Shown here piece after piece: positions 33,097 to 62,928 of a stretch of 64,000 bases of DNA. Both the position numbers and the translations under genes were made by a program. Location of the stretch: assembly GCA_903861205.1 (NCBI GenBank), contig CAIOTC010000018.1, positions 11,800-75,799 of the forward strand, in the 5' to 3' direction. The stretch's first letter is position 1, and each line of letters begins with the position of its first letter. A model generated the notes under the pieces. It had not been told where the DNA came from. It saw only the letters and a list, made by a program, of their open reading frames with translations, and ran no database searches. The stretch comes from an uncultured bacterium. GTDB taxonomy: Bacteria > Patescibacteriota > Minisyncoccia > Phycocordibacterales > DATDWN01.

Positions 33097-35268
33097 ATGA
33101 AAACAAAAAAAATACTCGAGTGGATAATTATGGGCGGTTTGTTTCTGACTCCGTTCATCGCTTTTATTGTTTTGGGAAACACTTTTTTCCCTTTTATCAC
33201 CGGTAAAGGATTCGCTTTCAGGATTCTGATTGAAATTCTGTTCGGCCTGTATGTCGTGCTCTCTGCCATGGCGCCGGAGTATCGACCAAAAATGTCCTGG
33301 GTCACAAAAGCGGTCGGCGCTTTCGTCCTGGTCACTCTGGTGGCCGATCTTTTTTCCGCCAACGTCTACAAAAGCCTTTGGAGCAACTACGAGCGTATGG
33401 AAGGTTTCGTTTTGATTTTTCACCTCGCACTATATTATATAGTGGCGACCGGCATGTTTCGAACGATGTCGCGTTGGATAGAGTGGATTAATGTCACGTT
33501 AGGCGCCAGCGTCATCATGTCCATTTATGGCGTTCTTCAGCTTCTCGGCAAAGCGACTATCAACCAAGGCGGCGTTCGTCTCGACGGCAAGTTTGGCAAC
33601 GCATCGTATTTCGCCATCTACCTCGTCTTCCATATTTTCCTGGCTCTATATATGTTGTCGCGCCATTACCGATTTGCTTGGCAGAAATGGATTTACGGCG
33701 TGGTGGCCTTGTTTGAAATTTGGATTTTGTACTTTACCGCCACGCGCGGCGCCATTCTCGGTTTTATCGGCGGACTTTTGCTCGCGGCCATTCTCATTGC
33801 TTGGCGGGAAAAAGAAAATAAAATTATACGCAAAGTCGCTCTCGGCACTTTGGCCGGTATTATAATTCTTGGCGCCGGTTTTGTGGCGATCCGCAATGTG
33901 TCATTTGTCAGAAACAGTTCTGTTTTGTCGCGTTTTTCTTCGCTTAGTCCGAGCGAATTTCAAACACAGGGAAGATATTATGTTTGGCCGATGGCCATCA
34001 AAGGTTTTCTCGACCGACCGGTTTTCGGCTGGGGACAGGAGAGCTTCAATTTCGTTTTCAACAAATATTATGATCCGCGAATGTACGGACAGGAGCAGTG
34101 GTTTGACCGCACGCACGACGTCGTTTTGGATTGGCTCATTAACGGCGGAATTGTCGGACTTTTGGCCTACGCTTCGATGTTTGCCGCGGTCATGTATTGC
34201 CTGTGGCGCAAGAAAAGCGAATTTTCCGTTATCGAAAAAAGTTTGTTCACTGGCATGATTGCCGCTTACGTATTCCACAATTTATTCGTTTTTGATAATC
34301 TGGTCAGTTACATTTTGTTTTTCTCCATTTTGGCTTTTGTTCACACAAAAAGTACGTTGCATGATGCTCCGACCGGCAAATTTTACACTTACACTTTTTC
34401 CAAAGATACTTTGCGATACGCGATCGTGCCTGTTGTCGGTGTGGTTGCGATCGGTGCGGTTTACTTTGTCAATGTGCCGGCTATAAAGGAAAATCTCACT
34501 TTGATTCAAGCCATCACGCCTCAACAGACAGGCGGCGCGGAAGCCAATCTGGCGCTCTTCAAAAAAGCTTTCGCCTACAATTCATTCGGTAACAGCGAAG
34601 CTCTCGAACAACTCATTTCGGTCAGTTCGCAAGTGGCCCAATCCCAAACTCCGGATTCGGTCAAGCAGGAATTTTACAATTTCGCCAAGGAACAGTTGGA
34701 AAAGAAAATAGCTTCCACGCCTCACGACGCGCGCTACTTGGCTTTCGCCGGCAGTTTCTTAAACCAGTTCGGTCAATACGATTTGGCCATTCCGTACTTG
34801 CAACGCGCTGTTGTGGAATCTCCGGGAAAACAGGCCATGTACTTTGAACTCGGCACTTCTTATGTCGGGAAAAGAGATTACGCCGGCGCTTTTGATTTGT
34901 TCAAAAAAGCTTACGACCTCGAGCCGAATTCTCCGGAATCGAAAATCATTTACGCAGTTGGCGCCATTTACACCAAGAACGCCGACGTTCTAAAGCAAAT
35001 CGGTCCGCAGATTGACGCCAAAACCATCGTGAGCGACAATCGCTTTTTGCAGGCCTACGCCACCATCGGGGATTACCAAAGCGTCATTGCCATTCTGACC
35101 GAAAGATTGAAAGCCGATCCGACAAACATGCAGTTTGAGATCTCGCTCGCTTCGGCCTATTTACAAATCGGCCAGAAACAGAAAGCGATTGATATCCTAA
35201 ATCAGATGATCAAACAAGACCCAACCTTCAAAGATCAGGGTGAAGCGTATATCAAGCAAGTCCAGTAA
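33097..35268 (+). CDS. O-antigen ligase/polymerase-like (Wzy_C) polytopic membrane domain with C-terminal TPR repeats
   Basis: The first ~430 aa have about 10-12 TM helices with a large periplasmic loop. The C-terminal ~280 aa contain TPR-like helical repeats (…YLQRAVVESPGKQAMYFELGTSYVGKRDYAGAFDLFKKAYDLEPNS…). Confidence 0.5.
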   Translation: MKTKKILEWIIMGGLFLTPFIAFIVLGNTFFPFITGKGFAFRILIEILFGLYVVLSAMAPEYRPKMSWVTKAVGAFVLVTLVADLFSANVYKSLWSNYERMEGFVLIFHLALYYIVATGMFRTMSRWIEWINVTLGASVIMSIYGVLQLLGKATINQGGVRLDGKFGNASYFAIYLVFHIFLALYMLSRHYRFAWQKWIYGVVALFEIWILYFTATRGAILGFIGGLLLAAILIAWREKENKIIRKVALGTLAGIIILGAGFVAIRNVSFVRNSSVLSRFSSLSPSEFQTQGRYYVWPMAIKGFLDRPVFGWGQESFNFVFNKYYDPRMYGQEQWFDRTHDVVLDWLINGGIVGLLAYASMFAAVMYCLWRKKSEFSVIEKSLFTGMIAAYVFHNLFVFDNLVSYILFFSILAFVHTKSTLHDAPTGKFYTYTFSKDTLRYAIVPVVGVVAIGAVYFVNVPAIKENLTLIQAITPQQTGGAEANLALFKKAFAYNSFGNSEALEQLISVSSQVAQSQTPDSVKQEFYNFAKEQLEKKIASTPHDARYLAFAGSFLNQFGQYDLAIPYLQRAVVESPGKQAMYFELGTSYVGKRDYAGAFDLFKKAYDLEPNSPESKIIYAVGAIYTKNADVLKQIGPQIDAKTIVSDNRFLQAYATIGDYQSVIAILTERLKADPTNMQFEISLASAYLQIGQKQKAIDILNQMIKQDPTFKDQGEAYIKQVQ

Positions 35269-35270
35269 AT

Positions 35271-35360
35271 GTAACAATTTACAATTTTCAATTTCCAATG
35301 AATTTTTCAATGAACCAATTGATCAATTGATTCATTCATTGGAAATTGTAAATTGTTACT
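35271..35360. repeat. Roughly 90-bp AT-rich imperfect palindrome (MITE-like), family 'ttccaatttccaatgaa / ttgatcaattgattcattcattg'
   Basis: The sequence gtaacaatttacaattttcaatttccaatgaatttttcaatgaaccaattgatcaattgattcattcattggaaattgtaaattgttac has matching ends (gtaacaattt…aaattgttac). It lies immediately after the stop of the upstream gene. Confidence 0.6.
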
Positions 35361-35379
35361 TGAAAATTGTTCGCCGAGC

Positions 35380-35408
35380 TTGCATTGTCGGCGAACCTGT
35401 AGTATACT
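35380..35408 (+). promoter_or_regulatory. Candidate sigma70-type promoter (TTGCAT-N17-TATACT) overlapped by a 9-bp-arm inverted repeat
   Basis: The -35 element ttgcat lies at 35380-35385 and the -10 element tatact at 35403-35408, with an exact 17-bp spacer. The inverted repeat gttcgccga…tcggcgaac (35369-35396) overlaps the -35 element. No protein-coding gene lies downstream for ~650 bp. Confidence 0.4.
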
Positions 35409-35476
35409 GTTCCTGTGGGTGTCAATACAAAATTGCGCAAGCGATAATGTACGAACATCAACAACGAATGTCACAT

Positions 35477-35499
35477 AAAGCCCGCTTCTGGCGGGCTTT
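35477..35499 (+). terminator. Perfect 9-bp hairpin (aaagcccgc-ttctg-gcgggcttt), a candidate terminator of a short transcript
   Basis: The hairpin is read directly from the sequence. It lies ~70 nt downstream of the candidate promoter and is followed by TTT. Confidence 0.4.
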
Positions 35500-35596
35500 A
35501 TGCTATACTTATTTTAGTTGCTCCTATGCACAGCTAGTGGATAACACTCACAAACTTTGACATTTGTTGGAGGTTCGTCTCCACTGGCGTTGCATC

Positions 35597-35638
35597 GGAG
35601 TAACAAAAAAATCGCTTCTGCGATTTTTTTGTTACTCC
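35597..35638 (+). terminator. Perfect 19-bp hairpin (ggagtaacaaaaaaatcgc-ttct-gcgatttttttgttactcc)
   Basis: The hairpin is read directly from the sequence. It has the same TTCT(G) loop as the hairpin at 35477-35499. Confidence 0.4.
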
Positions 35639-35647
35639 GAAATTTTC

Positions 35648-35760
35648 AAGTATCAATTTCCAATTTCCAATGAATTTTTCAATGTTTTAATTAATCAAAC
35701 AGGGCATTTGTGTTTTTGAAAATTGATCAATTGATTCATTCATTGAAAATTGAAAATTCT
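35648..35760. repeat. Second copy of the 'ttccaatttccaatgaa…ttgatcaattgattcattcattg' MITE-like element
   Basis: The sequence caatttccaatttccaatgaatttttcaatg … ttgatcaattgattcattcattgaaaattgaaaatt matches both arms of the element at 35271-35360. Confidence 0.55.
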
Positions 35761-35939
35761 TTTTTCTAAAATAATTTTAAAAAAATATTTTAGAAAAAAG
35801 TTATCCACACTTTTCCGCAAAAAAAAGTTTGTATTAAATTCATAAATGTATGATAATTATTGTAGGTCGTAAACAACAAAAAATATTTTTCGAAATAAAT
35901 TTTGTTGCGAACTTAAAAAAATAATTTTTTCTAAATACT

Positions 35940-38623: not shown

Positions 38624-38833
38624 ATGACAAATAAAATTCTCAAAAAAGAAACTTTTGAAAAAGAAATTGCAATGTGTCAAAAATTGTCAAAAAAGAACGG
38701 CGGTAAATGTAATTGGGGCGAGTGTAAAAAATGCGGTGTTATTCCATTATTGTATAAACTGGGCAAAGGTGAATTGCTAGAAGACCAAGATAAAATTAAA
38801 AAAATAAAGAACATATTGAAAAATCCCAGGTGA
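38624..38833 (+). CDS. Small Cys-containing hypothetical protein (69 aa; CxxxxxC…CxxC)
   Basis: The protein reads MTNKILKKETFEKEIAMCQKLSKKNGGKCNWGECKKCGVIPLLYKLGKGELLEDQDKIKKIKNILKNPR. It is AT-rich and ends inside a palindromic REP-like element. The ORF-track N-terminus (38513-38623) overlaps the secA 3' end and was discarded. Confidence 0.3.
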   Translation: MTNKILKKETFEKEIAMCQKLSKKNGGKCNWGECKKCGVIPLLYKLGKGELLEDQDKIKKIKNILKNPR

Positions 38834-38842
38834 CACCTGGGA
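38824..38842. repeat. REP-like palindrome tcccaggtgacacctggga (family P1), copy 1, 5' of the RAYT gene
   Basis: It is a perfect palindrome in the sequence and the same core recurs at 39137-39158 and 39558-39582. Confidence 0.7.
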
Positions 38843-38848
38843 CGGGCG

Positions 38849-39559
38849 GTGGTACACTTATATCATATGGTCAATAGAAAAATATCTTTTGTTGAAGGTG
38901 AGTATTATCATGTTTACAATAGGGGGAATAGCAAGCAGAAAATTTTTTTAAATTATGAAGATTATGATAGATTTACAAAACTTTTATTTCTATGCAACTC
39001 GGAGATAAATTTCAAATTTCGGGATGATATTGTAGAACAAAAGATTGATGCTTGGGAATTTGATCGAGGCGAACCAATTGTTTCAATTGGTGCGTGGGTA
39101 TTAATACCAAATCATTTTCATTTATATGTAACTATCAGTCCCAGGTGTCACCTGGGGCCAGAAGAAGATGCAATTGCATACTTTATGCAGAAGTTGTGCA
39201 CCGCTTATTCGATGTATTTTAATAAAAAATATGAGAGAACTGGCAAATTGTTTGAGGGTGTTTTTAAGTCAGTGCATATTGAAAACGATGAATATGCAAA
39301 ATATAACTTTTCTTATATTCACTTAAATCCGGTCAAATTGATTGATTCAAAATGGAAAGAAAATGGGATAAAAGATATCAAAAAAACCTTGAAATTTTTG
39401 GACAAGTATAAATGGAGCAGTTATCTTGATTATAAAGGTATCAAAAGACCAGAAAATAAAATAATTACTCGGAAAGATTTTCCGGATTATTTTAGTAATC
39501 CAAAAATTTTCAAGGAAGAAATTTTTGATTGGTTGAAATTCAATGAAGAGGAAAACTAG
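38849..39559 (+). CDS. REP-associated tyrosine transposase (RAYT) / IS200-like Y1 transposase
   Basis: GEYYHVYNRG… is typical of the RAYT/TnpA_REP N-terminus. The HuH motif is PNHFHLYV and the catalytic Tyr region is YIHLNPVK. The gene is flanked on both sides by the same palindrome and carries an internal copy encoding …ISPRCHLGPEE…. Confidence 0.7.
   Translation: MVHLYHMVNRKISFVEGEYYHVYNRGNSKQKIFLNYEDYDRFTKLLFLCNSEINFKFRDDIVEQKIDAWEFDRGEPIVSIGAWVLIPNHFHLYVTISPRCHLGPEEDAIAYFMQKLCTAYSMYFNKKYERTGKLFEGVFKSVHIENDEYAKYNFSYIHLNPVKLIDSKWKENGIKDIKKTLKFLDKYKWSSYLDYKGIKRPENKIITRKDFPDYFSNPKIFKEEIFDWLKFNEEEN
39137..39158. repeat. REP-like palindrome agtcccaggtgtcacctggggc (family P1) inserted in frame inside the RAYT coding sequence
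   Basis: It lies immediately after the HuH motif and is translated as SPRCHLGP. Confidence 0.65.
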
Positions 39560-39596
39560 TCCCAGGTGTCACCTGGGGCTACCTTGGACTAGTTTG
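39556..39596. repeat. REP-like palindrome (family P1), copy 3, overlapping the RAYT stop codon
   Basis: The sequence aactagtcccaggtgtcacctggggctaccttggactagtt has outer arms ctagtcc/ggactag, which extend the palindrome. Confidence 0.65.
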
Positions 39597-45299: not shown

Positions 45300-46871
45300 A
45301 TGAGTGACTACAAAACAACTATCGGTTTGGAAATACACGCCGAGTTGAAGACCAAAACCAAAATGTTTTGCGGGTGTTTGAATGTGCCGGATGACAAAAA
45401 TCCGAACATTTATGTTTGTCCGATTTGCATGGGGCATCCGGGAACTTTGCCTGTTATAAACAAAGAGGCTGTAAAAAAAGTTTTGCTTGTCGGCGCGGCC
45501 ATTGGCTCGCAACTGGCGGACTTTACCGAGTTTGATCGCAAGAATTATTTTTATCCTGATATTCCAAAAGGATATCAAATCACTCAATACAAATATCCTC
45601 TGGTTTCCGGCGGAACTCTGGCGGGCGTGCAATTGACTCGCATTCATTTGGAGGAGGACACGGCGAGATCCCTCCACAGTAGTGGAGGAAATTTCCAATT
45701 TCCAATTTCCAATTTCCAATCAAATCCCAATGAATCAATTCTCAATAAAAATTCAAAAAACGAAAATTATAGTCTGGTTGATTTCAATCGCGCCGGTGTG
45801 CCACTCATGGAACTAGTGACCGAGCCCGTAATGCACTCAGCTGGCGAGGTCATGAAATTTGCGCGTGAGCTCCAACTTCTTTTGAATTATTTAGATGTCT
45901 CTGACGCAAACATGGAGAAGGGGGAAATGCGTGTCGAAGTGAATATTTCGGTGGCGAAGGATTTTTCCACACCAGGGTGTAACGTTGCTGCGCCGTTGAC
46001 ACCAGGTGAGAAAAAATCCTCAACACCGAGTGAGCTCAAACTAGGGACGAAAGTGGAGGTGAAAAATATAAATTCATTTCGCGCGGCGGGCAAAGCGGTG
46101 GAGTATGAATACGAGAGGCAAACAGCTCTCCTTGAGAGGGGAGAGAAAGTGGTTCAGGAAACTCGCGGGTGGGATGAGAATAAAGGTGTGACATTTTCCC
46201 AGAGGTCAAAAGAGAACGCGCACGATTACAGATATTTTCCCGATCCTGATTTGCCGAAACTTTTGATTAGTGAAATACCGGAATTATCTCTGGAAAATTT
46301 GAAAAAAAGTTTGCCGGAATTGCCGTGGGAAAAGAGAGAAAGATATGCGAAGGATTTTGGATTGAAAGGGGAGGATATAGAGACTTATGTGAATAATCCT
46401 GATGTGGCAAAGTTCTTTGAATTAGTCGCTGACAAACTTATAAAATGGGGTAGGGATGTTGTGCAAATGGCAAGCAACTATATTTCTTCGGATTTATTGG
46501 GATTAGCAAAGAATTTACTTACAGATAAATTCGGAAAGGTGACGCCGGAGGGTTTTTCGGGAATGATTGTTATGATAAAAAACGGAGATATTTCTTCGCG
46601 CGGAGCTAAAGATATTTTGAAAGTTATGTTCGAAAATGGGGGAAGTCCGGAAGAGATTGCCAAAGAAAAAGGATTGATCCAAAAAAATGACAGTGATGAA
46701 TTGAAAACAATTATGCAAAAAATAATTTCTGACAATCCGAAAGTGGTGGAGGATTTCAAATCTGGAAAAGAATCAGTCCTGCAGTTCTTTGTGGGGCAGG
46801 GAATGAAGGCGACAAAAGGAGCGGGCAATCCGGAAGTGTTGAAATCAATTGTTTTAGAATTACTAAAATAA
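45300..46871 (+). CDS. gatB: Asp/Glu-tRNA(Asn/Gln) amidotransferase subunit B, carrying two in-frame repeat-element insertions
   Basis: MSDYKTTIGLEIHAELKTKTKMFCGC…YFYPDIPKGYQITQ is the canonical GatB N-terminus. At 523 aa it is about 45 aa longer than typical GatB. The extra segments map to repeat elements at 45688-45750 and 45968-46010. Confidence 0.85.
   Translation: MSDYKTTIGLEIHAELKTKTKMFCGCLNVPDDKNPNIYVCPICMGHPGTLPVINKEAVKKVLLVGAAIGSQLADFTEFDRKNYFYPDIPKGYQITQYKYPLVSGGTLAGVQLTRIHLEEDTARSLHSSGGNFQFPISNFQSNPNESILNKNSKNENYSLVDFNRAGVPLMELVTEPVMHSAGEVMKFARELQLLLNYLDVSDANMEKGEMRVEVNISVAKDFSTPGCNVAAPLTPGEKKSSTPSELKLGTKVEVKNINSFRAAGKAVEYEYERQTALLERGEKVVQETRGWDENKGVTFSQRSKENAHDYRYFPDPDLPKLLISEIPELSLENLKKSLPELPWEKRERYAKDFGLKGEDIETYVNNPDVAKFFELVADKLIKWGRDVVQMASNYISSDLLGLAKNLLTDKFGKVTPEGFSGMIVMIKNGDISSRGAKDILKVMFENGGSPEEIAKEKGLIQKNDSDELKTIMQKIISDNPKVVEDFKSGKESVLQFFVGQGMKATKGAGNPEVLKSIVLELLK
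45688..45750. repeat. 'ttccaatttccaat' element (same family as 35271-35360 and 35648-35760) inserted in frame in gatB
   Basis: The sequence ggaaatttccaatttccaatttccaatttccaatcaaatcccaatgaatcaattctcaat is translated as GNFQFPISNFQSNPNESILN. Confidence 0.6.
45968..46010. repeat. Palindromic element family P3 (cacaccNggtgt-aacgttgc-gcgccgttgacaccaggtgag) in frame in gatB
   Basis: The sequence ccacaccagggtgtaacgttgctgcgccgttgacaccaggtgag is translated as STPGCNVAAPLTPGE. A nearly identical copy, including 8 flanking nt, lies at 48968-49010 in the giant ORF. Confidence 0.65.
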
Positions 46872-46981: not shown

Positions 46982-47224
46982 CTACTCCTCGATGTGTCTG
47001 ATGATTAACTTCTTTATCTGACCTTTGGTGCTTTTGCGCAAACCGGCGTTTGTCTCAATTTCGTGGATAACCTTCTCCAGATCTCCGACGCTATAAACCC
47101 TGTAGTTATTCATTGGGTGACGATGAGCTTTGAGCTTACCGTTCTTGTCCCAGTTGCGTAGGGTGAGCGGCGACACTCCTAAAATCTTCGACGCTTGTTT
47201 TATGGTTATGTATAAGTTAGCCAT
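46982..47224 (-). CDS. Small helix-turn-helix DNA-binding protein (MerR/excisionase HTH_17-like)
   Basis: ITIKQASKILGVSPLTLRNWDKNGKLKAHRH…YRVYSVGDL reads as a MerR-type HTH. It is similar to the N-terminal 60 aa of the giant ORF. Confidence 0.55.
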   Translation of the reverse strand: MANLYITIKQASKILGVSPLTLRNWDKNGKLKAHRHPMNNYRVYSVGDLEKVIHEIETNAGLRKSTKGQIKKLIIRHIEE

Positions 47225-47569
47225 ATTTTTAGTTTATTACATTAATAATGATTACTAAAGCTATATAAATAATGATACTAACAATGGTAATGTATATCAA
47301 GCTATGGATAATAAAAACTGTGGATAAGTGGTAAAAGAAGGGGGATACAAAATAATTTAAAATTTAGAATTTAAAATTTAAAATGAATTTTAAATTATTT
47401 AATTTGAAAATTATAAATTCAATAAAAATTAAAAATTTTAAATTGAAAATTTCACCATTTTGACCTCGTATAATCGCTTTAAACGAGACTTTTTTGTAAA
47501 AGTGATCTAATGGCTGTGTGAATGGGTGAAAAGTTGATGGGGACTTGACAGGAATTTGAAGAATTTTTA

Positions 47570-47612
47570 GACACTCGGTGATCACGTTGCTACGCCGTGG
47601 ACACCGAGTGTC
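47570..47612. repeat. Palindromic element family P3, intergenic copy
   Basis: gacactcggtgatcacgttgctacgccgtggacaccgagtgtc. Confidence 0.55.
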
Positions 47613-47686
47613 TTACATGCGAGTGCAAGTTTAGCCAGACTAATCTTAGCTTATTTTCCAAAATCTCGGATTGAAGAAAAAACTTT

Positions 47687-47735
47687 CCGAGGACTGACCT
47701 CCGGTGCCCAATTTTTTGAGGTCAGACCTCCGAAA
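47687..47735. repeat. Palindromic element family P5 (ccgaggactgacctcc…gaggtcagacctcc), intergenic copy
   Basis: ccgaggactgacctccggtgcccaattttttgaggtcagacctccg. A second copy lies at 48125-48175 in frame in the giant ORF, where it is translated as PRTDLQCPISRGQTSG. Confidence 0.55.
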
Positions 47736-47858: not shown

Positions 47859-50800
47859 ATGAGTTCCGATTTATTCTTTCAAAATAAAAAATATATTTCC
47901 GCTAAAGAAGCGGCGGAACTAACTTCGTATTCCAGAGATTACATCGGACAACTTTGCCGCGATAAAAAAATTGATTCGAAAAGAATCGGACACACTTGGT
48001 ACGTTTGCGAGGAATCAATTTTAAATTATAAAAACACTCCTACTGATTTTGATTTTGCGAAGAATTTTAAAGGTGCGCTCACACCGGGTGTTGGGGATCA
48101 AACACCCGGTGAGAGCTCCACAAATTTGTTCCCGAGGACTGACCTCCAATGCCCAATTTCCCGAGGTCAGACCTCCGGAACAAAATTTGTCAAATCGACA
48201 CACAAAATTCTTTTTGCAAAGAATTTTCACTTCTCGAAAGTTTTTGCTTCTGTTGCGGCAATTGTCATTTTCTTCCTTGGGACGATTTCATTGGCGCAAG
48301 GTTTTGCGAATCTTGTTCCGATGACTTCAAAATTTGCCGGCGATGTTTCGAAAATTTCTCTTTCACAAATTGCAAAGTCCGCGCAAAATATTTCAGATGA
48401 AATTTCCGCAGCGCCGGAAAATTCTTACAACGCGCTAAAAGATATTGCAGTTTTTTATTCATCGGAGTTTACCGATGGTCTGATCAATTTTGGAAATAAA
48501 ATTCAAAACGCCACTTTTGCATTTTTGAATCAAACGAAAAAATTGGCCAAAAATCCCCCGCTTTACATCGTCCAATCTTTGACCGGGCTAGCCGGTGGCG
48601 AAACAAAAATTGTCGACAGTGGAATTTCCATTTCCGGCAACGCCATCGCCACGGCGCACGAAAAAACTTTTGCTTTTATTTCCGACTCGATTGGCGGTTT
48701 ACCTTTTGTTGCGAACTACACCACCTCGACAACAAAAAATATGACTTCGTCGGTGGCGATGGCGGTGCAAGAAAAAGCATTGACGCCGGTTGATCATGCC
48801 GGCATTTCGATTTATGACTCGGTCAACAATTTCTTCCGAACGAATTTGTATTCTCCGCTCCTAGCATTTCTCGGTAAAAGTCCGAACATTGTGGTGCCGG
48901 AGAAAAAGTCGGCAGGACCGATGATTGCGAAAAATCAGGGTGTGCTCACACCAAAGTCAGATTTGTCCACACCTGGTGATAACGTTGCTTCGCCGTTGAC
49001 ACCAGGTGAGTACAAATCTGCGGGCATAACCAGCGCGGAGCTTGATTTGCGTTTACAGGAACTCGACAACAAAATCGCGGCCAAGTTTGCCCAACTTTCG
49101 ACTGGCAACGGCGGAAGCGTGCAAAATATTTACAACATGATTGCTCAGAGCCAAGTCGGCGCGGGCGTCTCGAACGGCGGATCGGCCAGCTCGGCAACGG
49201 TAGCCAACGGACTTGTGGCCGGCACGGACATCAGCGTCAACTCCATCACGGTTACCGGCTCGGCCACATCGACATTCGCCGGCGGAATTGCGATTAGCGG
49301 CGGCTGTATTTCGGTGAACGGCGTTTGCCTCGGTTCCGGTTCCGGCAACACAACTGGCGGTTTGGCCGGACAATTTCCGTATTACCAAAATGACGGTTCG
49401 ACACTTTATGCAACTTCATCAATCTTTATCACCCCGAACGGAAATGTCGGCATTGGCACGACGACGCCCGCCAAAAAATTCTCGGTTGACGGCGATGTCA
49501 TTGTTAGCGGAAATATTTTCACCACGCTTTTCAATGCCATCAGCTTGAGCGCGACGAATGCCACGACATCAAACTTCGCCATTACCAACATCAAATCATC
49601 TCTCCTCAAAACAAACGCCGACGGCACGGTTGTCGCCGCGATTGCCGGCACCGACTACGAATCCAGCACAACGGTCAATTCGCTGATCAACGCTTCGACC
49701 ACCATCGCCAAACTTTACACCAACAACAATTTCACCGGACTGCAAACATTCAACTACTCATCCTCCACCATTTACTCATCGTTTGTCACCGCCTCGACCA
49801 CCAATCTTTTGGCCGGTACCATCTCACTCAACGGCACAGATTTGCAAACGACACTCAACGGCAAGCAATCCACCATCTCCGCTAACTGGCCGTTCACACT
49901 CACCGGCAGCACACTTGGTTGGAATGGTCTTTCCACTTCATCGGCCGCCACCATCGGCAACATTCCGTACTTCACCTCCGCAAACACATTCGGCAATGTT
50001 GGAACCACCACACCGACATTTAACCTCGGTCTGACAGCCGGAGGAACATGGTCTGTTCTCGGTTCCGCGCCGACACTTACCATCGCTACATCTTCTCTCT
50101 ACACCGGTACCACCGGACAATTCCCGTACTTCAGTGGGACAAACACCATCACTGCCACTTCGTCACTCTTCCTCGCGACGAGTGGGAATGTGGGCATTGG
50201 AACGGCGATTCCGGGCGTGAAATTGCAAGTTGTAGGACAATCAGGAACTGGAAACATAGGAGTGATAAATATCACCGGTTATGACTCGTTCGGTCAAAGT
50301 TTGGTTATGCAACTGCCAAGTACCGGATATACCGGTAATCTGATTGCATTGATGAAAGCCGCCGGTGGCTCAGGCCAGGCCATGGGTTTTTCAACTCATT
50401 TTACTTCCGACGCGGTTGACAGGTTTTCCATAATGAATCATCTTGGCGTTGAAAATCTTTCTGTTTTAGACAGCGGCAACGTTGGCATTGGCAGTACTTC
50501 TCCAACATACAAACTATCGGTCGAAGGAACATCATCTCTAGGCAATCAAGCCATCGCCGGATATTTCACCGCCACCTCGACCATGGCCACTTCCACATTC
50601 GCCGGCGGTCTCGACATCACCAAAGGTTTGCAACTGAACAGCGGCTACATTTTCGGCGCGGGACTTTCCTCTTGCAACGGCACTACGGCCAAACTTTTAT
50701 GGAACGCGACCACCGGCCAATTCGAGTGCGGCACTGATGCCGGCTCGTCCGGTCTCGGCATCTCATCGATCAACGGTCTGGCTGTCGGTGTGCAAAAATT

Positions 50801-53800
50801 AGCCACATCGTCCACTAACGGCGGCTGGGGATTTTTGTCATCGGTTGACACGCACACGCTCAACATTCCGACGGCCTCGGCGACAAATCCGCTCGGTTTA
50901 CTTTCGTCATCGGACTGGACAACGTTCAACAACAAGGACAGTTTCGCTTTTCCATTCATCGCCCAATCGTACGGAATGTCCACCACGTCAACTCTCGGTT
51001 TGCTCGGCGGATTTTTCACACCGGCTTCGGCCTCATCCACCATCGCCGGCACGTTCAACTTGCCGTCACTTTCAAACGGCGCGCTGGCCGTCTACAACGG
51101 ACTGGTCGGAAGCTATGCCACCACCACGGCCGGATCTTCTCTGACATATTCCGGCAATGCGTTTAATCTGAACATGGCCAACGCCAACTCGTGGACGGCC
51201 AACCAAACATTTGCATTCTCGTCGACCACGTATGCATCGCTGACCACCGCGTCGACAACCAATCTCACCATCGGCGGAAACACTTTCAACACACTTGTCG
51301 GCGCAGGACTGATCAACAACTCCGGCGCGCTTGGTCTGACCAACACTTCGCTTACAGTCAACGCCGGCACCGGACTTTCCGGCGGTGGCACAGTCGCTTT
51401 AGGCGGAACAATCACACTTTCAAATCAGCTGGCCACCTCGTCCGGCGAATCAGCGGGCAACTTGGCATACTGGACCACGACCAACGGAGTGCCGGCCAAA
51501 CTCGGCTCGGTGGCCACCACCACCCTGACTGCTTCCGGCGCGCTGTCACTCGACCACGCCATTTCCGTGCTTGGCTCGACACCATCGATCCTGACATGCG
51601 CCACCGCCAACTCCTCGACGTTCGGATGTTTAGCCGCCGCTGACTTCTCCAAATTTAATTCCGCCACCACTACTTTTGGCGGAGGATTGTCATATTCAAA
51701 CGCATCAAATCAAGCGACACTGAACATGGCCAATGCAAACACTTGGACAGCGTTGCAATCATTCAACTACTCATCGTCAACGATTTACTCATCATTCGTC
51801 ACAGCATCGACCACAAATCTTTTGGCCGGAACAATTTCACTGGGCGGCGCCGATTTGCAGACGACACTGAATTCGAAACTTGGCACATCCCTCGCCAAAG
51901 GAAAATTCCTCGTAGGCGATGATAATGGCGTGGCGCAGGCGACATCGACAATTTTCATTTCTTCGACAGGCAACGTGGGGATTGGGACAGCAGTACCGGG
52001 AGCGTTAGTTCACATATTGTCTTCTGCAACAAAAAATGTAAATGGCCAAGAAGTTTTGAGACTTTCAGGTACAGCTGCAGCTGACACTATTGGAAGCGGG
52101 CCCAAAATATTATTTACTCATTCCGACAACACAGTAACCGCATCGATTCGCTCTTATACTTTTGGGGCTAGTGATACTGGTCTGGCATTTAGCACTGGTT
52201 ATGGAGCTTTGACAGATAAGATGTTTATTAATAACGCGGGCTCCGTCGGCATCGGCTCGACATCTCCGACGTACAAACTCTCCGTCGAAGGAACATCATC
52301 TCTCGGCAATCAAGCCATCGCCGGATATTTCACTGCCACTTCTACCATGGCTACTTCGACATTCGCCGGCGGACTCGATATCACCAAAGGTTTGCAACTG
52401 AACTCCGGTTACATTTTTGGCGCGGGATTGGGAACATGCTCGTCTGTTACCGGAAAAATAACTTGGAATTCAGCAACCGGACAATTTGGTTGCGGGACTG
52501 ACGCGGGTTCGTCCGGTGTTGGCATCACCTCTCTCGGCGCGCAATATTCCATCGCTCAAACCAACGCTATCCAAACTCTGGCTACCTCGACATCGCTCGA
52601 CGCCAATCTCCGACTGACCATCACCTCGGCCGGCGACACGCACACATTCACACCGTCCTGGTTTGGCACGCTCGACGACAGTCGCATCACTTCGGCCGCC
52701 AATTGGAACACCGCGTACTCGAGCAGAATCACCTCCGCCTCACTGCCGCTTTCATTCTCCGGCAACGTTCTCTCAATCTCGCAAGCCAACGGCACGACCA
52801 ACGGCTACTTGTCCGCTGCTGACTTCTCCAAATTTAATTCTGCGACAACAACATTCGGCGGAGGATTGACATACACCGCGGGCACAAACCAAGCTACGCT
52901 GAATCTTGGAAATGCCAACACCTGGACTGCACTGCAATCTTTCAACTACTCCTCATCAACCATTTACTCGTCATTTGTCACAGCTTCGACCACCAATCTT
53001 TTGGCCGGCACCATTTCACTGGGCGGCACCGATTTGCAAACAACACTCAATGGCAAACAATCCACTATCTCTGCATCATGGCCGATTACACTAAACGGTG
53101 CGACAGTTGGCTTCAACGGACTCTCCACTTCCTCTGCAGCTGTCACCGGCAACATTCCATACTTCACCGGAGCGAACACATTCGGCAATGTGGCTACCAC
53201 TACACCAACATTCAATCTCGGACTGACAGCTGGAGGAACATGGTCTGTTCTAGGCTCCGCACCGACACTTTCCATCGCCACTTCTTCTCTCTACACCGGT
53301 ACTGCTGGACAATTCCCATATTTTAGTGACACCAACACCATCACCGCCACTTCATCGCTCTTCTTAGCGACGAGTGGGAATGTAGGCATCGGGACGGCAT
53401 CTCCTGTAACTCCTCTAGATATCTACAGAAACGGCAGTTACTACAATTATTTAAATCTCAGAAACGGGCAAATGAGTAATAACGTCGGCTTGCCTTCCGT
53501 AGACACTGTGTTCAGCGTTAGCCAAGAAACTCCAACATATGGGAAAGCGATAGTCACCGGAGTTTATTCAAATGGAGACAGCTACGCATTAAAATTGAAG
53601 GGAGTTAGCGGAGCAACCAGTTTGACCGCGGCCCCTCTTGTTTTGACCGGCGCAAAAAGAAATAGCAGCAGTCAAGTTAACGTTGCTGATACAGAACAGT
53701 TGTTGCAAGTACAAAAAAATGATGGCACTGCTTTGATGACTATGTTGGGTGGTGGAAATTTGGGCATTGGCACCACCTCGCCATCGTACAAATTGGATGT

Positions 53801-56800
53801 GATGGGTGGTATTGCTTCGTACGGTTCTTCGTTCTTTGGCGGAGCCATCACCGCCACATCGACACTGAACGTCAGCGGACTTGCGACATTCGCGTATTCC
53901 ACCACCACCTACGGATCTTTCACCACCGCTTCAACAACAAATTTTGTTTTGAACGGACAAACATTCAACAATCTTGTTGGTTCCGGTCTGTCGCTAAACA
54001 ACGGCGTGCTTTCCGCGACGGGTGGAGCCGGCAATGTTTCTACCTCATCAGGTGAGGTAATGGGACAACTTTCATACTGGACTACCACTAATGGCACCCC
54101 GGCAAAATTGGGAAGCGTCGCCACCACCACCTTGACCGCTTCCGGCGCGCTCTCACTCGATCACGCCATTTCCGTTCTCGGCGGAACTCCGGCGATCCTC
54201 ACATGCACCACGGCCAACGCCACCACTTTCGGTTGTTTGGCCGCCGCTGACTTCTCCCGCTTCAATTCCGCCACGACGACATTCAGCGGAGGACTATCCT
54301 ACACAGCCGGCACAAATCAAGCATCGCTTAACATGGCAAATGCAAATACATGGACAGTCAACCAATCTTTCAATTATTCCTCATCAACCATTTACTCGTC
54401 ATTTGTCACCGCCAGCACCACCAATCTTTTGGCTGGCACAATCTCACTCAATGGCACGGATTTGCAAACAACATTGAACTCAAAACTCGGAACGACACTG
54501 GCCAAAGGAAAATTCATTGTCGGTGATGACAACGGTGTGGCGCAGGCGACATCGACACTATATATATCATCCCTCGGCCAAATCGGCATCGGCGATACCT
54601 CGCCGTCCGCTTTACTTTCCGTTGGCACCACTACCAGCACCAACGCCGTTGGCGGAATGTATTTTGGCAAGGACACCACGGCGAATTTGTACAGGAGTGG
54701 AGCGGGATGGTTGAAGACTGATGGAAATTTGGAAGTGGCCGGCGGAACAGGTTTGAAAATCAGCAGTGGAGCTTTAAATATGAATGGTGGCGCAATTAGT
54801 AGTATCAGACAATTAGTTGGAGCTACAACTGATGATGGAACAGGTGTAATTAATTTCTCTAATGCAAATCTTACATCCGCTCAATATATTAACCTTACCC
54901 AAAATACTTCCGCTTTTACCGGCGACGGTTTGAAGTTTAATTTCGCTGCAGGCTCCGGTTCCTTCACCGGCAACTTTGCTGAGTTCCAAAATAACAGCGT
55001 AACAAAGTTTGTTGTCAAATCAGATGGTTCAACCGGCATCGGCTCATCCACTCCCGGTTCGCTCCTCTCCATTGGTGGCAATGGCACAGGTTGGAATTTC
55101 TTTGACAACGGCACGACGACCAGCTACGCAAAAGGAATTGATCTGAAAAACGGCGGTTGCTTCGCTGTCAACGGCACGTGCTTGTCGAGTGGCGGATTGT
55201 CGGCGGCCATCACTTCGCTCAACGGACTAACCGGCGCGATCCAAACATTCGCCACCACATCGATCGCCGGCGGTTGGGGCTGGAGCTCGGTTGGCACCAC
55301 ACACACACTCAACATTCCGACGGCTTCGGCCACCAACCCACTCGGCCTGCTTTCCGGCGCGGACTTCACCACCTTCTCCAACAAGCTCGGCAACACGCTG
55401 GCCAAAGGTAATTTCTTTGTCGGCTCGGATGGCAATGTGGCGCAAGCGACAAGTTCCATTTTCATTTCATCGACCGGCTCGATCGGCATCGGCACGCAAA
55501 ATCCATCATCGCTTCTGTCGATCCTCGGCACCACCGGCGGACCGTCACTTTTCAACGTCGCCTCCACATCGGGCAATTCCATTTTCAGCATTCTCAATAA
55601 CGGCTCGATCGGCATCGGCACATCATCACCGCTCGCCACGCTGGACATTCAAAATAATCCGACCAGTTTCCAAAATTTGCTGAACTTCTCAAACTCCTCC
55701 GGCACATCGCTCATGAATGTCGGCTGGTACGGCGACTTGACCCAAAATATTTCCTCGACCTCGGCGGTCAATATCCAGGACGGCGCGGGCAACTCGGTCT
55801 TCTCGATCGACACCACGCAGTCGTCGTCCAACGCCGGTCTCGACATCACCGCGGGTGGCGCGCAGTCGGGTAATTTGCTGAACGTCTACTCGTCCGGCGG
55901 CGACTTGCTCTCCGGCATCACCTCCGAGGGCGGCTGGTTCTCCAACATCGGCTCGACCAACGCGCTGTCCCTGCAAAACGGCAGTGGCTTGCCGGCCTTC
56001 ACATTTGACACCATCGGCAACCAGCTGACCGTCGGCTCGTCGACCGTGCCGACCACTTCGCTTCTCAATGTCATTGCCGTCGACCAATCGACTGATTTGT
56101 TTGACATCGCGTCAACCTCAGGCACGACATCATATTTGCACGTGACCAACACCGGCCAAACCGGCATTGGTACCAGCACCATAAACGGCACATCGCTTGC
56201 TTCCACTTTGACCGTGGCCGGTGACGCCAACTTCCCGACATATCCGCTTTTGACCATCGCCTCGTCCACCGGCACAAATCTGTTGACACTGGGTGTCAAC
56301 GGATATCTGGGACTTGGCTCGACCACTCCGGGCTCGCTGTTGTCGGTGGGTGGCGATGCAGTGGGCATCAACTTCTCGCTCGCGACAACGACGTACTCGA
56401 CCACCGGTGGAATTAACCTAACCAAAGGTGGTTGCTTTGCGGTCAACGGCACATGCCTATCTGGTGGAGGAATTTCCGGATTGACCGGTTCAACATTGGC
56501 TAAAGGCAGTTTCCTCGTTGGCGGCGACAACAATCAATCGCAGGCGACATCGACACTATATATATCATCCCTCGGACAAATCGGCATCGGATCAACCACT
56601 CCATGGGGTCTCCTCTCCGTCAACGCCAACGCTCTCACCTCCGACACACCGCAATTCGTTGTCGGCTCATCGACCGCCACCAACTTCATCGTGGCGAATA
56701 ATGGCAACGTCGGCATCGGGACAACGAGTCCACAGGCAACCTTGAATGTTTGGGGAACTTCCGGAACAAATCCGTTTTTGGTTTCTTCATCAACGGGAAG

Positions 56801-59800
56801 TGGGCTGATGGTTGTTCAACAGAACGGCAATGTCGGGATTGGGACGACGGGGCCCAATGCTGACTTGGATATATCTAATGCTAATCTGACACAAACAATC
56901 AGGCTGGGTTATTCGGGAACTCCGGCGGGACAGTATGCGCAATTTCAATTTAATAAAGCCTCGGATAATAGTTTAAATATTCTCACAAATTATTCCGGAG
57001 GTACAAATAATGTAATAACGTTCTCTCCAGGCGGAACCGAAAAGGTGCGATTTCAACAGAACGGCAACGTCGGCATCGGGACGACGACTGTGGGTAGTAG
57101 ATTAGTCGTGCAAGGTTCGGGAGCTACATCAGCTACGACAGCTTTAACGGTACAGAACAGTGCGGGAAGTGTGGCAATGTCAATATTAAATAACGGCAAC
57201 GTCGGCATCGGGACGACGAGTCCGAGTCAGTTGTTGACTGTGGGGAATAATAATCAGTTTACGGTTTCTTCAGTCGGAGCACTGGTGTCTCAAACGGCAA
57301 CAATTGGAGCAACGGCTGTGGTGCCTGTTGTGGTGAGTGGTACCGGAATATTCGGTGGCGCTTCTCCTAATGGGACATACAGTTATATTGGTAAGGATGG
57401 CTTTGGTGCAAATGAGTATCAATTTGGTACTTGGTATATATGGTGGGATAATGCGGTGCCTTGCTGGATTATTAATCATAGCCTTGGAACATGGAGTTCA
57501 AACGGGTTTTATAGTAGCGGAGGTTCAGGAACACCGCCATATGGTTTGGCCTGGAACAATGGGTCGTCAGGAACTGTGACTACTGCCGCTGGAGTGGCAA
57601 GTAATTTGACGGTAGATGGAGGTGGCAGCATTATTACCGGTGGTACTTTAAGTGTAAATGGAACAGGGAATAGTTATATACTCGGCAACGTCGGCATCGG
57701 GACAACGAGTCCACAGGCAACCTTGAATGTTTGGGGAACTTCCGGAACAAATCCGTTTTTGGTTTCTTCATCAACGGGAAGTGGGCTGATGGTTGTTCAA
57801 CAGAACGGCAATGTCGGCATCGGCACCACCACTCCAACCAACAAACTGACCATCACCGACACGGCCAATCCGCAGTTGACCCTGTCGGCTGACGCGGGTG
57901 TCTCGCAATGGGCCTTCCGCAACGCCGGTGGGAATTTGTATTTTGCCACGACCACGGTGGCGGGAACAGCGACAACATCGACTTCTGCGCTCTCCATTTT
58001 TAACAACGGCAACGTCAGCATTGGCAATTCCGCCACAGCCAACACTCTGACGGTTGGTGGCGGTTCGAACCTTGCCAGTATCAGCAACACCGCCACTTCC
58101 ACATTCTCACACAGCATCAGCTTGTCTGACGGATGTTTTGCCATCGGTAACACTTGCATCGGCTCGTCAAACGGCTCGGGCACGGTTGGTGTGGGAACGC
58201 AGGGTTATGTTCCGTTCTACAACACCGCCACCGATGTTCTCCAGGCCACATCGACACTATATATAGCGCAGTCTGGCTACGTCGGCATCGGCGGAGTGAC
58301 CAGTCCGACAAATCCGCTGGACGTCAGAGTCGGTGGCAGTGTTGCTTCGCCGAAACTGATTTCCTTTGACTTACTCGGTTCGGTCGAGCGCATCAAGACA
58401 ACATCGACCGCTTTGGATTTGCCAAACTTTATATATCTCGACTCGTCATCCGGCGACGCCACTTTGTCCAACACGGCCAACACCCAGAGCCAGATATTGC
58501 TCGGCGCTAATACCACTGTCGAAGGTCAGGGCAGTTTGTACCTCGACACATTCTCCGGCGGTGGCGGCAGCATTTTCTTCCGACCGCTCGGCACGCAGAA
58601 AATGGTTTTGACCAGTGATGGCAAACTGGGCGTGAATACCACAGCTCCGGCAGGGAATTTGCAAGTCAACGATGGCGCGAACGCTTTCCTGGTCAACGCC
58701 TCCGGCCAAGTCGGCATCGGCACGACCACACTGACATCGAAACTTTCCGTCGAGGGTAGCGTGACCTCATCGGGCGCCAGCGCGGTGGCGGGATTGTTCG
58801 CTTCGTCAACATTGAGCAACTCGAATGGTAGCGGATTCCAGTTCGGCAACAGGCTGATCAACAACGTCATCGGTGGAACGGCCGGGACCGAGGACGGGTT
58901 GTTCGTGCGCATGATCGATTCGTCCAGCGCAGCCAACACGGTGCGTGGTCTCGAAGTTCAGGCTTACTCGGGCAACAACACGGCCGGCGTCAACACCGGT
59001 ATCGCCACCTACGGCAAGACATTCGGTTTGCAAGCTTACACCACCGCGCTGGCCGGCGGAGTGTCGCAACCGGCGGCGGTGTTTGCGCAACTCGACAACG
59101 GCGGCGCACCGACCATCGGCAATGCTATTCGCGCATATTCCAACTCGCTGACATCGGCCACGCTGGTCAGTTTGTACCACGAGACATCGGCCTTCACCGG
59201 CACAGGTTTGGCCATGAACTTCGGCAACAACTCCGGCAGCTTCAGCGGTAACTTCCTCGATTTGCAAAACGCGGGTGTGAGCAAGTTCCGAGTCAACAGT
59301 GTTGGCCAAACGATAATCGGTTCTGCCGGTTCGTTCAACAGCTCGATGCTCGATGTCGCTTCGTCGACCGCCACCTCGAACGTCGACATGTTCCGCATCA
59401 TCTCCGACGTCGGTGGCGCGGCCAACGTCAAATTCCGCATCGACTCCGACGGAGATGTCTTCACTGACGGTGGCACGACAATCGGCTCACCGGCCGACAT
59501 CGCCGAGAATTATCCGGTCGCCGAGGACGGCCTCGAAGCCGGCGACGTGGTGGCATTGTCAACATCAACAAGGGTCCCCCTTGTGGATTCTGGATTACAA
59601 GGGGGACCCTTGTTGGGAGATTCTGCAACCACCACCATCTCCGGTCTTGTCAAAGCTTCTCGCACCGAGCGCAACATTCTCGGTATCGTCTCAACCAAGC
59701 CAGGCGTTCTGCTTTCCGGCAACACCGAAAATGCCGTGCCTGTCGCGTTGGCCGGACGCGTGCCAGTCAAAGTGTCTGACGAAAACGGCGCCATTGTGGT

Positions 59801-61003: not shown

Positions 61004-61666
61004 ATGAAAAATCGCGACTATAAAGAGTTTGCAGAAGGTGAGTATTATCACATTTTTAACCGCGGTGTCGGCAAGATGGATATTTTTTTGGATGACCAAG
61101 ACTACCTAAACTTTCTCAAGCGCCTGAAAATCGTTCTGAACTTGACTCCAAAAAGGGTGCCCCTTTTGGGTTCGGATTCAGAAAAAGGGGCACCCTTTTT
61201 GCACCTGTCTCCGTTGCCTGAAAATTCCTTTGAAATCATCTGTTATTGTCTGATGCCTAACCACTTCCATTTTATTATTAAACAACTCGGCGACATTTCA
61301 ATAAGCGATTTGATTTCAAAAATCTGCATTAGTTACTCAATGTATTTCAATAAAAAAAATGATCGAGTTGGTTCCTTGTATCAAGATCAGTTCAAAGCCA
61401 TCAACATTGCTACCGACCAGTATCTCCTCTGGCTTTCCGCCTACATCCACCAAAATCCGCATGTGGCCGGGTTGGTCAAAAATTTGGCGGACTGGAAATG
61501 GTCCAGCTACCCCGACTACATCGGCGCGCGGCAGGGAACTTTGTGCAAAAAGGACGTGGTGCTAGAGCGATTCAAAAACGCGCGCGAGTACGCCGACTTT
61601 GTGGATAGCGGTTTTGATATAATAAAAAATAAGGCGGAGTTGAAAGATTTATTGTTGGATTTTTAA
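61004..61666 (+). CDS. Second RAYT / IS200-like Y1 transposase paralog
   Basis: It has the GEYYHIFNRG N-terminus, the HuH motif PNHFHFII and the Tyr region YIHQNPHVAGL. It contains an in-frame P2 palindrome at 61150-61200. Confidence 0.65.
   Translation: MKNRDYKEFAEGEYYHIFNRGVGKMDIFLDDQDYLNFLKRLKIVLNLTPKRVPLLGSDSEKGAPFLHLSPLPENSFEIICYCLMPNHFHFIIKQLGDISISDLISKICISYSMYFNKKNDRVGSLYQDQFKAINIATDQYLLWLSAYIHQNPHVAGLVKNLADWKWSSYPDYIGARQGTLCKKDVVLERFKNAREYADFVDSGFDIIKNKAELKDLLLDF
61150..61200. repeat. Palindromic element family P2 (aaaaagggtgcccctttt…aaaaaggggcacccttttt) in frame inside RAYT-2
   Basis: The inverted repeat is read directly from the sequence. It encodes KRVPLLGSDSEKGAPFL between the RAYT N-terminal motif and the HuH motif. 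Confidence 0.6.
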
Positions 61667-62925: not shown

Positions 62926-62928
62926 TTC

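Follow-up and report, generated by a model that had tools for sequence, protein, structure and literature searches.

Candidate palindromic repeats inserted in frame into the gatB gene of a bacterium from the Candidate Phyla Radiation

Introduction

According to the passages on them in a review (PMC10969869), the Rickettsia palindromic elements RPE-1 to RPE-10 (Ogata et al. 2000 Science 290:347; 2002 Genome Res 12:808) are palindromes that lie in frame within Rickettsia genes. Repetitive extragenic palindromic (REP) sequences can likewise be found in frame within genes, including those of tRNA synthetases, where they encode 20-30 amino acids (Di Nocera et al. 2013, PMC3733652). Such repeats and the REP-associated tyrosine transposases (RAYTs) are treated together in the RAYT/REPIN (REPtron) framework (Bertels & Rainey 2011, PMC3116915; Bertels et al. 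2017, PMC5581495; see also Messing et al. 2012, PMC3479197). [quoted passage not shown] In the literature that we searched, no relevant paper on REP/RAYT or palindromic insertions in the Candidate Phyla Radiation (CPR) was found. Here, we describe gatB and its surroundings in a 64-kb stretch of DNA from an uncultured CPR bacterium (assembly GCA_903861205.1, contig CAIOTC010000018.1, positions 11,800 to 75,799), hereafter the window. This gatB carries two extra in-frame segments that are very probably insertions of two different small repeats, which we term E1 and E2.

Results

The gatB gene, for subunit B of the Asp/Glu-tRNA amidotransferase, occupies positions 45300 to 46871 of the window on the plus strand, as an uninterrupted open reading frame (ORF) of 523 codons. 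It encodes the GatB_N cradle (Pfam, 3e-99) and the GatB_Yqey tail (1e-35) together with the conserved catalytic residues of the family, and its best PDB match is Thermotoga GatB (3AL0_B, 4e-109), over the full length. The names on its closest database homologues are those of CPR/Patescibacteria (Paceibacteria, Zambryskibacteria, Minisyncoccia). We compared it with 120 homologues of 61-71% BLASTP identity and a median length of 476 residues. Four of these relatives are referred to below both by protein and by locus, namely P0003 (L005), P0002 (L006), P0004 (L001) and P0073 (L002); the window's own GatB is P0001.

A preliminary description of the window had put the excess length of this GatB at about 45 residues; the excess is real, and the two insertions bring it to about 50. 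The extra residues lie in two loops. Loop 1, which follows the invariant HLEEDTARS strand, has 61 residues in the window's protein and 35 in 101 of the 120 homologues, and loop 2, at the tip of the beta-hairpin between NISV and GTKVEVKN, has 58 residues and 34 in 98 of them. Both in-frame segments are thus specific to the lineage, as had been proposed. Four or more extra residues were also found in 17 of the 120 homologues at loop 1 and in 18 at loop 2, mostly with sequences unrelated to one another. The two loops are general insertion hot spots.

Every invariant column of a 72-sequence alignment is kept in the window's GatB, including E11, H13, E118-E119-D120, N163-R164 and E171. An AlphaFold2 model made from that alignment had a mean predicted local distance difference test score (pLDDT) of 81.6 and a predicted template modeling score of 0.78. 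Only the two insertions, at residues 124-158 and 223-243, had a pLDDT below 50, and both were modeled as coil between confident strands. In the model, then, the inserts behave as disordered loops, in agreement with the expectation that the insertion points would fall in loops. Since the invariant residues are all retained and the rest of the protein is modeled confidently, gatB is intact, and the concern that it might be a pseudogene can be set aside.

A separate observation concerns loop 2 in other homologues. Three GatB homologues of 640-651 residues (P0028, P0039 and P0087) hold a GxxExxY / PD-(D/E)XK domain (PF13366, ~165 residues) in frame at this position. The insert, present in three CPR lineages, is flanked by linkers of the type LTSAE...LRESA, and P0012 seems to keep the linkers alone. 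Possibly, this is a mobile nuclease nested in an essential enzyme.

Insertion 2 (45960-46040, plus strand) consists of 27 codons ('DFSTPGCNVAAPLTPGEKKSSTPSELK') in place of three in the nearest relatives, a net gain of 24 residues, and its peptide was absent from all the other homologues in the comparison set. Its main part (45960-46018) is a complete 59-nt copy of E2, read as DFSTPGCNVAAPLTPGEKK. The copy is composed of a 40-nt GC-rich core hairpin (ACACC.GGTG..AACGTTGCTGCGCCGTTGACACCAGGTG) and the AT-rich outer arms GATTTTT and AAAAATC, which is the layout of the E2 family (core ACACCNGGTGAYAACGTTGCTNCGCCGTTGACACCNGGTG, outer arms GATTTKT.../...AMAAATC). The tail (46019-46040) contains a solo E2-type arm, ACACCGAGTGAG (46023-46034, of the CCGAG type), within the extra codons SSTPSELK; its arm type agrees with that of the E2 copies at 47562 and 62802.

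The evidence that E2 is a repeat is strong. A 29-nt core pattern occurs four times in the window and is expected zero times from shuffles, and an E2 profile recovered six strong copies (E-values from 1e-14 to 3e-18) at 45960, 47562, 48960, 59883 (minus strand), 60209 (minus strand) and 62874, as well as a diverged copy at 62802 (minus strand). In all, we count eight E2 copies in the window, to which our copy counts for both elements apply: four in frame, within two unrelated genes (gatB and a giant ORF of 4377 residues, 47859-60992) and in both orientations, and four outside the listed ORFs. The copy at 48960-49018 (plus strand; folding z-score -6.9) lies in the giant ORF in the frame that is used in gatB (DLSTPGDNVASPLTPGEYK). 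It is 86% identical to the gatB copy over 59 nt, flanks included, which bears out the near-identity noted in the preliminary description. Two more copies lie in frame in the same ORF in reverse orientation (59883-59941, read as STPGVNGEATLSPGV, and 60209-60268, read as LSPGVNGAATLSPGV; both on the minus strand). An intergenic copy at 47562-47620 (plus strand, z-score -5.95) has the compensatory arm variant ACACTCGGTG/CACCGAGTGT. Diverged copies at 62802-62859 (minus strand) and 62874-62932 (plus strand) form a REPIN-like inverted doublet (62802-62932; z-scores -7.7 and -3.9), the second of which, by our reading by eye, overlaps the apparent ATG (~62930) of a putative downstream reading frame. 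In addition, close to the N-terminal end of the giant ORF, a short E2-like palindrome (48077-48116, plus strand, ALTPGVGDQTPGE) is read in frame, within a segment of 14-19 residues ('FAKNFKGALTPGVGDQTPG') that is missing from orthologues of this ORF.

E2 copies fold as long hairpins (z-scores from -1.9 to -7.7), and for the gatB copy, folded as single-stranded DNA, the energy is -15.8 kcal/mol (z-score -4.6). Differences between copies are compensatory, both in the arms (ACACCWGGTG/CACCWGGTGT versus ACACTCGGTG/CACCGAGTGT, with CCTGG/CCAGG versus CTCGG/CCGAG) and near the loop (AACG/CGTT versus CACG/CGTG). Because the outer arms are out of register in a MAFFT alignment of the copies, we assessed them by a permutation test of flank complementarity. 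In this strict test the 14-nt flanks of the core were complementary over 6-9 bp in four of the eight copies and over at most 4 bp in the others; 0.6% of random window positions reached 6 bp.

The coding copies are also constrained in frame. Forward E2 has one open frame of three, and all three forward coding copies (in gatB, in the giant ORF and in L005) use it (...TPG.NVA.PLTPGE...), while the two reverse coding copies have one frame in common (...SPGVNG.ATLSPGV...). All are stop-free and a multiple of three in length, which bears out the earlier suggestion that translatability is preserved.

Two other explanations were considered and rejected. The CTCGG arm variant disagrees with a restriction-site or Dcm-site explanation of CACCWGGTG, and a terminator role does not suit dispersed copies that have no T-runs and often lie within ORFs. 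Searches with Rfam (gathering thresholds) and ARAGORN returned no match anywhere in the window, and thus no described RNA family explains its hairpins.

Insertion 1 (45690-45767, plus strand) adds 26 in-frame codons ('NFQFPISNFQSNPNESILNKNSKNEN'). It resembles E1, an AT-rich, MITE-like palindrome of ~90-130 nt with long inverted arms, of which it retains the left arm, with the heptad CAATTTC repeated four times. With at most one mismatch, TTCCAATTTCCAAT occurs six times in the window versus 0.16 expected. Intergenic copies of E1 lie at 35272-35365, as a near-perfect palindrome directly downstream of a Wzy/TPR ORF (33097-35268), and at 35641-35772, with extra internal sequence (profile E=3e-33). 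An nhmmer profile made solely from these two copies matched insertion 1 at E=0.003, and it matched the same-site insert of P0004 (L001, 1416-1531) at E=6e-6, on both strands. The copy at 35272-35365 folds (z-score -5.1), whereas the gatB copy does not fold as a hairpin (z-score -0.7) and lacks 30 nt of the right arm that are still present in P0004. The first claim about this segment, that it derives from a palindromic element with two intergenic copies, therefore holds as to kinship but not as to form: insertion 1 appears to be a decayed, right-arm-truncated remnant of E1 with no present-day palindrome, and its repeat nature is more weakly supported than that of insertion 2. A further E1-like AT-rich palindrome (47350-47452) lies upstream of the giant ORF and has a match in the equivalent spacer of L002 (11941-12117, E=0.008). 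The E1 census of the window comes to one coding and three non-coding copies.

The spacers that hold E1 have other features. DnaA-box-like 9-mers (TTATCCACA / TGTGGATAA) occur in several of the window's spacers (~35803, ~47321, ~47808 and ~61905) beside AT-rich E1-type palindromes, and gatB lies a few genes from dnaA-dnaN in related contigs. Between the Wzy/TPR gene and secA lies an intergenic block (window 35366-35645, L006 2470-2800) that has 81% identity in the two genomes and includes two sub-blocks of over 90% identity, each ending in a terminator-like hairpin (35474-35502 and 35595-35640). No Rfam, tRNA or tmRNA match was found in this spacer; the two sub-blocks are candidate small RNAs.

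Related genomes provide empty sites. The closest GatB, P0003, is 80.6% identical to the window's protein on 464 core columns and is its sister in a neighbor-joining tree. P0003, P0005 and P0002, the three closest proteins, have neither insertion, so that the search for empty sites proposed in the preliminary description was successful. Likewise, L006 is syntenic with the window from 33 to 47 kb and has no E1 after the Wzy/TPR gene. At other positions, relatives have hairpins of their own. The gatB of P0003 carries E2 (nhmmer 5e-11) at a different position: the copy follows LSKNL, in the helical part of the protein, and is translated as PAPGDRVATPLTPGE, in the frame used in the window's gatB. 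P0073 has a shorter E2-like palindrome (ACACTCGGTGAGCG...CGCTCACACCGAGTGT) at loop 2 and again at a third gatB site, and at loop 1 it has in-frame CCCCTAGGGG-type hairpins of the form found around RAYT-like genes (see below). In P0051, a TTCCCCTA...TAGGGGAA hairpin is present at loop 1. Apart from these, the called start of the P0003 protein (L005, 226-270) adds 13 residues (MGLICPISPIRPM) ahead of the conserved start; probably, either the start was called wrongly or this is a further small insertion.

The E1 insert of P0004 is a fuller copy and sits at the very codon position used in the window's gatB. Taken by itself, this is a homologous peptide at the same site in another lineage, which the preliminary description had regarded as evidence against its proposal. 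The tree and the local DNA identity point to a second hit. P0004 ranks 50th of 120 in core identity to the window's protein and belongs to another clade, whose remaining members are without the insert, and the most recent common ancestor of the two proteins spans the whole GatB tree. Their DNA is 88% identical in the left arm of E1, ~67% identical gene-wide and 65-77% identical just outside the element. We rejected common ancestry of the two inserts, as the proteins belong to separate clades and their DNA is highly identical within the element only. Because an ancient insertion would need many precise losses and is far less parsimonious, this preferred site was probably hit twice, independently, by closely related elements. 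Such a second hit strengthens the mobile-element reading of the gatB segments.

The window also encodes two RAYT-like proteins of the HUH/Y1 type. The gene of the first, RAYT-1 (61004-61666, plus strand), encodes a candidate mobilizing enzyme with matches to Pfam Y1_Tnp (2e-9) and NCBIfam REP_Tyr_transpos (1e-15). The gene of the second, RAYT-2 (38849-39559, plus strand; true start probably 38867), gave weaker scores and has the same motifs. Against NCBIfam NF047646 the two proteins scored 57.5 and 35.3 bits, below its cut-off of 80 bits, and against Y1_Tnp, with a cut-off of 23 bits, RAYT-1 was over (38 bits) and RAYT-2 under (16.9 bits). RAYT-1 had a single PDB match, E. coli TnpA-REP (4ER8), in whose alignment the HUH motif and the YI..NP..G.V...DW.(W/F)S motif coincide; a PDB search with RAYT-2 gave a chance match only. 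PNHFH and YIH.NP, the HUH motif and the catalytic tyrosine context of RAYTs, are invariant in the alignment of RAYT-like proteins.

These genes are accompanied by hairpins. That of RAYT-2 (TCCCAGGTG.CACCTGGGA) lies upstream of the gene (38824-38842), in frame within it (~39139-39157, 'SPRCHLG') and downstream (39557-39581), where GTAG adjoins it on the minus strand. Its L006 orthologue, 74% identical and in the same synteny, shows a hairpin at each of the three corresponding positions, with arms that have changed in concert such that the palindrome is kept (CACCGAGGTG/CACCTCGGTG). The family is widespread in metagenomes, a scan of which yielded at least 560 relatives (including loci L007-L086). 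At 24 of the 62 loci with enough flank, an identical hairpin arm was present on both sides of the gene, compared with 1 of 132 shifted control intervals, and 16 of 80 loci had an internal copy of their own hairpin, in frame, within the transposase gene. The same hairpin-gene-hairpin layout surrounds a RAYT-like gene in L002. With cognate hairpins on both sides and vertical inheritance in conserved synteny, the architecture of the RAYT-2 family is REPtron-like. RAYT-1 is followed by a GAGAGG-GACAC-CCTCTC hairpin.

Hairpins of at least 11 bp are abundant in the window (44, versus 2-12 in shuffles). Families other than E1 and E2 show an ...AGG-N5-CCT... form, occur as inverted doublets and are partly in frame. 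A GAGG-ACTGA-CCTC family (GAGGACTGACCTC...GAGGTCAGACCTC) has an intergenic copy at 47689-47730 and one in frame in the giant ORF at 48134-48175 ('PRTDLQCPISRGQTSG'). REPIN-like AAAAGG-GTGCC-CCTTTT doublets lie in frame within RAYT-1 (61147-61203) and in a spacer (61978-62022), a doublet of a related family lies in frame in the giant ORF (59566-59615), and a singlet of this hairpin type follows closely on RAYT-1 (61706-61727). What E2 shares with the RAYT-2 hairpin is limited to the heptamer CACCTGG/CCAGGTG, which occurs 15 times where 4.3 are expected, for the most part within copies of E2 and the hairpins of RAYT-2. The two arm types of E2 parallel two types of RAYT-2 hairpin, the alternative one being similar to the hairpin of the L006 orthologue.

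Short perfect palindromes were also seen in long ORFs of related CPR contigs, at L002 5481-5510 (a class Ib aminoacyl-tRNA synthetase), L003 6088-6110 (gatB), L068 3173-3205 and L070 6266-6292; two of these are copies of the hairpin flanking the local RAYT-like gene. As to the neighborhood of gatB, a divergent MerR-family gene (46982-47224) precedes the giant ORF. A helix-turn-helix-like segment is conserved at the N-terminus of this ORF, and internal repeats, with a GNVGIGT motif, are numerous in it. The order gatB-MerR-giant ORF is kept in L002, L003 and L005.

Discussion

We favor an explanation in which gatB was hit twice by small non-autonomous palindromic repeats, and taken as a whole we judge it reasonably probable, less so than the repeat nature of the inserts as such. 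Small palindromes such as E1 and E2 would circulate in the genomes of a Paceibacteria-type CPR lineage and would land in genes as well as spacers, because genomes so compact leave little non-coding DNA to land in. Where the gene is indispensable, an insertion would survive only if it were stop-free, a multiple of three nucleotides long and placed in a tolerant loop. GatB would have two loops of this kind, loop 1 behind the HLEEDTARS strand and loop 2 at the NISV/GTKVEVKN beta-hairpin tip, and these would be struck repeatedly and independently in different lineages. The inserts would be translated as short disordered loops rich in Pro, Gly, Ser and Asn, and the enzyme would stay functional. That E1 and E2 are moved as single-stranded hairpins by the window's RAYT-like HUH tyrosine transposases is a more tentative proposal, suggested by the sequences, to which we give somewhat less than an even chance.

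Several observations weigh against this explanation or parts of it. Neither E1 nor E2 is a hairpin that flanks RAYT-1 or RAYT-2, both are without the ...AGG-N5-CCT... form that is common in the RAYT-flanking hairpins of the family, and no GTAG or CGTC tag (PMC3733652) was found in E1/E2 copies or their flanks. Their copy number is known from the 64-kb window alone. Two exact E2 patterns had no match in 185,579 representative genomes and one had none in JGI metagenomes, and among 5.8 billion proteins none had three 5-mers in common with the E2-encoded peptides; E2 is thus a very narrow family, represented by a small sample. Filled and empty sites defined no target-site signature or target-site duplication and revealed no transposition event. 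Translation of the inserts is suggested by frame and stop-codon statistics. Insertion 1 starts ~10 residues past the invariant EED motif, and thus the expectation that the inserts lie far from the active site is unsupported. Finally, the E2 copy at 48960-49018 replaces a segment of similar length and adds none, and the outer arm of the L005 copy partly coincides with the conserved KNL codons; acquisition driven by microhomology or by recombination is therefore also compatible with the data.

Such acquisition is central to an account in which no transposase takes part. Palindromes would spread between hairpin-forming sequences through gene conversion or microhomology-mediated template switching while DNA is replicated or repaired, and the RAYT-like genes would be unrelated neighbors. 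Besides the replacement in the giant ORF, the overlap with pre-existing KNL codons and the dissimilarity of E1 and E2 to RAYT-flanking hairpins, it is favored by a 7-bp inverted repeat (GAATTTA/TAAATTC) already present in the empty site of the window's own gatB, by net insert lengths that vary (39-42, 72, 78 and 108 nt) and by the conversion-like concerted change of the three RAYT-2 hairpins between the window and L006. We nonetheless consider it unlikely. The full 59-nt E2, outer arms included, is common to unrelated sites and two genomes, the recurrence of E1 at one site in distant lineages suggests targeting, and HUH enzymes of a hairpin-processing kind are encoded nearby. Selection for a useful insert appears less likely again: the hairpins might tune gatB translation or stability in the mRNA, or the peptide loops might give GatB and the giant surface protein a new interaction. 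Compensatory changes that keep the hairpin, an E1 left arm more conserved between two lineages than the surrounding gene, the E2 copy that overlaps an apparent start codon, and the view that REPs in other bacteria act as RNA elements (PMC3733652) would all suit a function. Against it, the closest relatives manage without either insert, the gatB copy of E1 has kept neither its palindrome nor 30 nt of one arm, the segments are modeled as disordered, and other lineages have unrelated inserts in the same loops.

Two further alternatives would deny that the segments reach the mature protein or exist at all. Intervening sequences cut from the RNA or skipped would leave a GatB of normal length, and RNase III might plausibly take the hairpins as substrates. 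Brown and colleagues reportedly described insertions in CPR rRNA genes in 2015. Yet an excised sequence would not need to be stop-free and a multiple of three, as all the coding copies are, nor to keep to the sole open frame of E2, as the three forward copies do. The lack of an Rfam family match and a decayed E1 copy that has no structure to direct processing also speak against removal, which we regard as very improbable. Least credible of all is a pseudogene or an assembly artifact, such as a repeat-induced chimera in a metagenome-assembled genome. Repeats can misjoin contigs in metagenome assemblies, but the ORF is unbroken with every invariant residue in place, the structural model is confident, an identical 523-residue protein is recorded on two contigs from ENA and NCBI sources, and equivalent inserts are present in relatives.

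Insertion by small palindromic repeats, the explanation that we prefer, would imply that small symbiotic-type genomes of an unrelated phylum tolerate selfish hairpin DNA as Rickettsia does. Such insertions would account for some of the unusual additional loops of CPR proteins and for some of their variation in length, with consequences for annotation, structure prediction and phylogenies, and would serve as natural presence/absence markers. A much broader reading, about which we are doubtful, is that hairpin repeats tied to the widespread and vertically inherited RAYT-like family may be a main source of protein length variation in Paceibacteria-type CPR. They would insert recurrently, and sometimes at specific sites, into giant surface proteins and into loops of enzymes that are essential, namely GatB (three or more sites) and an aminoacyl-tRNA synthetase. 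The in-frame hairpins within the transposase genes would then suggest an enzyme that senses, in its own gene or mRNA, the hairpin belonging to it, and the whole would be a REP/RAYT system suited to genomes in which non-coding DNA is nearly absent. Either way, RAYT-like genes with cognate hairpins offer a tractable case of how REP-type elements move and land where there is almost no intergenic space.

How does this locus compare with the systems known so far? As with RPEs, palindromic repeats occur both in spacers and in frame within unrelated housekeeping genes, with coding copies in both orientations, and in a reduced genome they would be translated as extra loops compatible with the fold. 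E2 has four coding and four non-coding copies and E1 one and three, and the inserts sit at positions predicted to be compatible with the fold (of low pLDDT, between strands, in loops whose length varies in homologues). The hosts differ, CPR/Patescibacteria here and Alphaproteobacteria for RPEs, and E2 has 59 nt where RPEs have ~100-150 bp. The likeness to RPEs first proposed for these segments is thus one of behavior and not of family membership: we treat E1 and E2 as analogues of RPEs on the grounds of host and length, and expect no relation in sequence. To our knowledge, no transposase has been assigned to RPEs, whereas RAYT-like genes with cognate hairpins are present in the window.

E2 also resembles REPs and REPINs, which are short imperfect palindromes of 20-40 nt with a stable stem-loop, in its 40-nt core, its eight copies and its z-scores of down to -7.7, and both E2 (62802-62932) and other hairpin families of the window form inverted doublets. 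As in REPtrons, the HUH/Y1 RAYT-like genes lie in conserved synteny, flanked by their own hairpins. Unlike in REPtrons, the repeats that flank them are neither E1 nor E2. Copy numbers, counted in 64 kb, look low for a REP/RAYT system, the RAYT-like proteins score below the NCBIfam equivalog cut-off, and RAYT-like genes hold an in-frame copy of their cognate hairpin. Membership in the RPEs or in the canonical GTAG/CGTC REPs is not supported, because the host is different, the GTAG/CGTC tag is missing and E1 and E2 are not the repeats that flank the RAYT-like genes.

E1 is similar to MITEs in being AT-rich, ~90-130 nt long, with long terminal inverted repeats and a variable interior, and in its presence or absence between related genomes; it differs from them in that no target-site duplication can be defined. 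We came across no cognate DDE insertion sequence in the window, whose ORFs were not scanned for one. The mitochondrial GC-cluster elements, too, are small hairpin repeats in frame in essential genes of compact genomes, but they are organellar, unrelated in sequence and of unknown mechanism. In-frame palindromes as such are already known from RPEs and intragenic REPs, and what is new here is the bacterial phylum, CPR/Patescibacteria. Less ordinary are the recurrence at the same site, the fact that a single essential gene was hit several times among relatives, and the in-frame copy of their own hairpin within RAYT-like genes.

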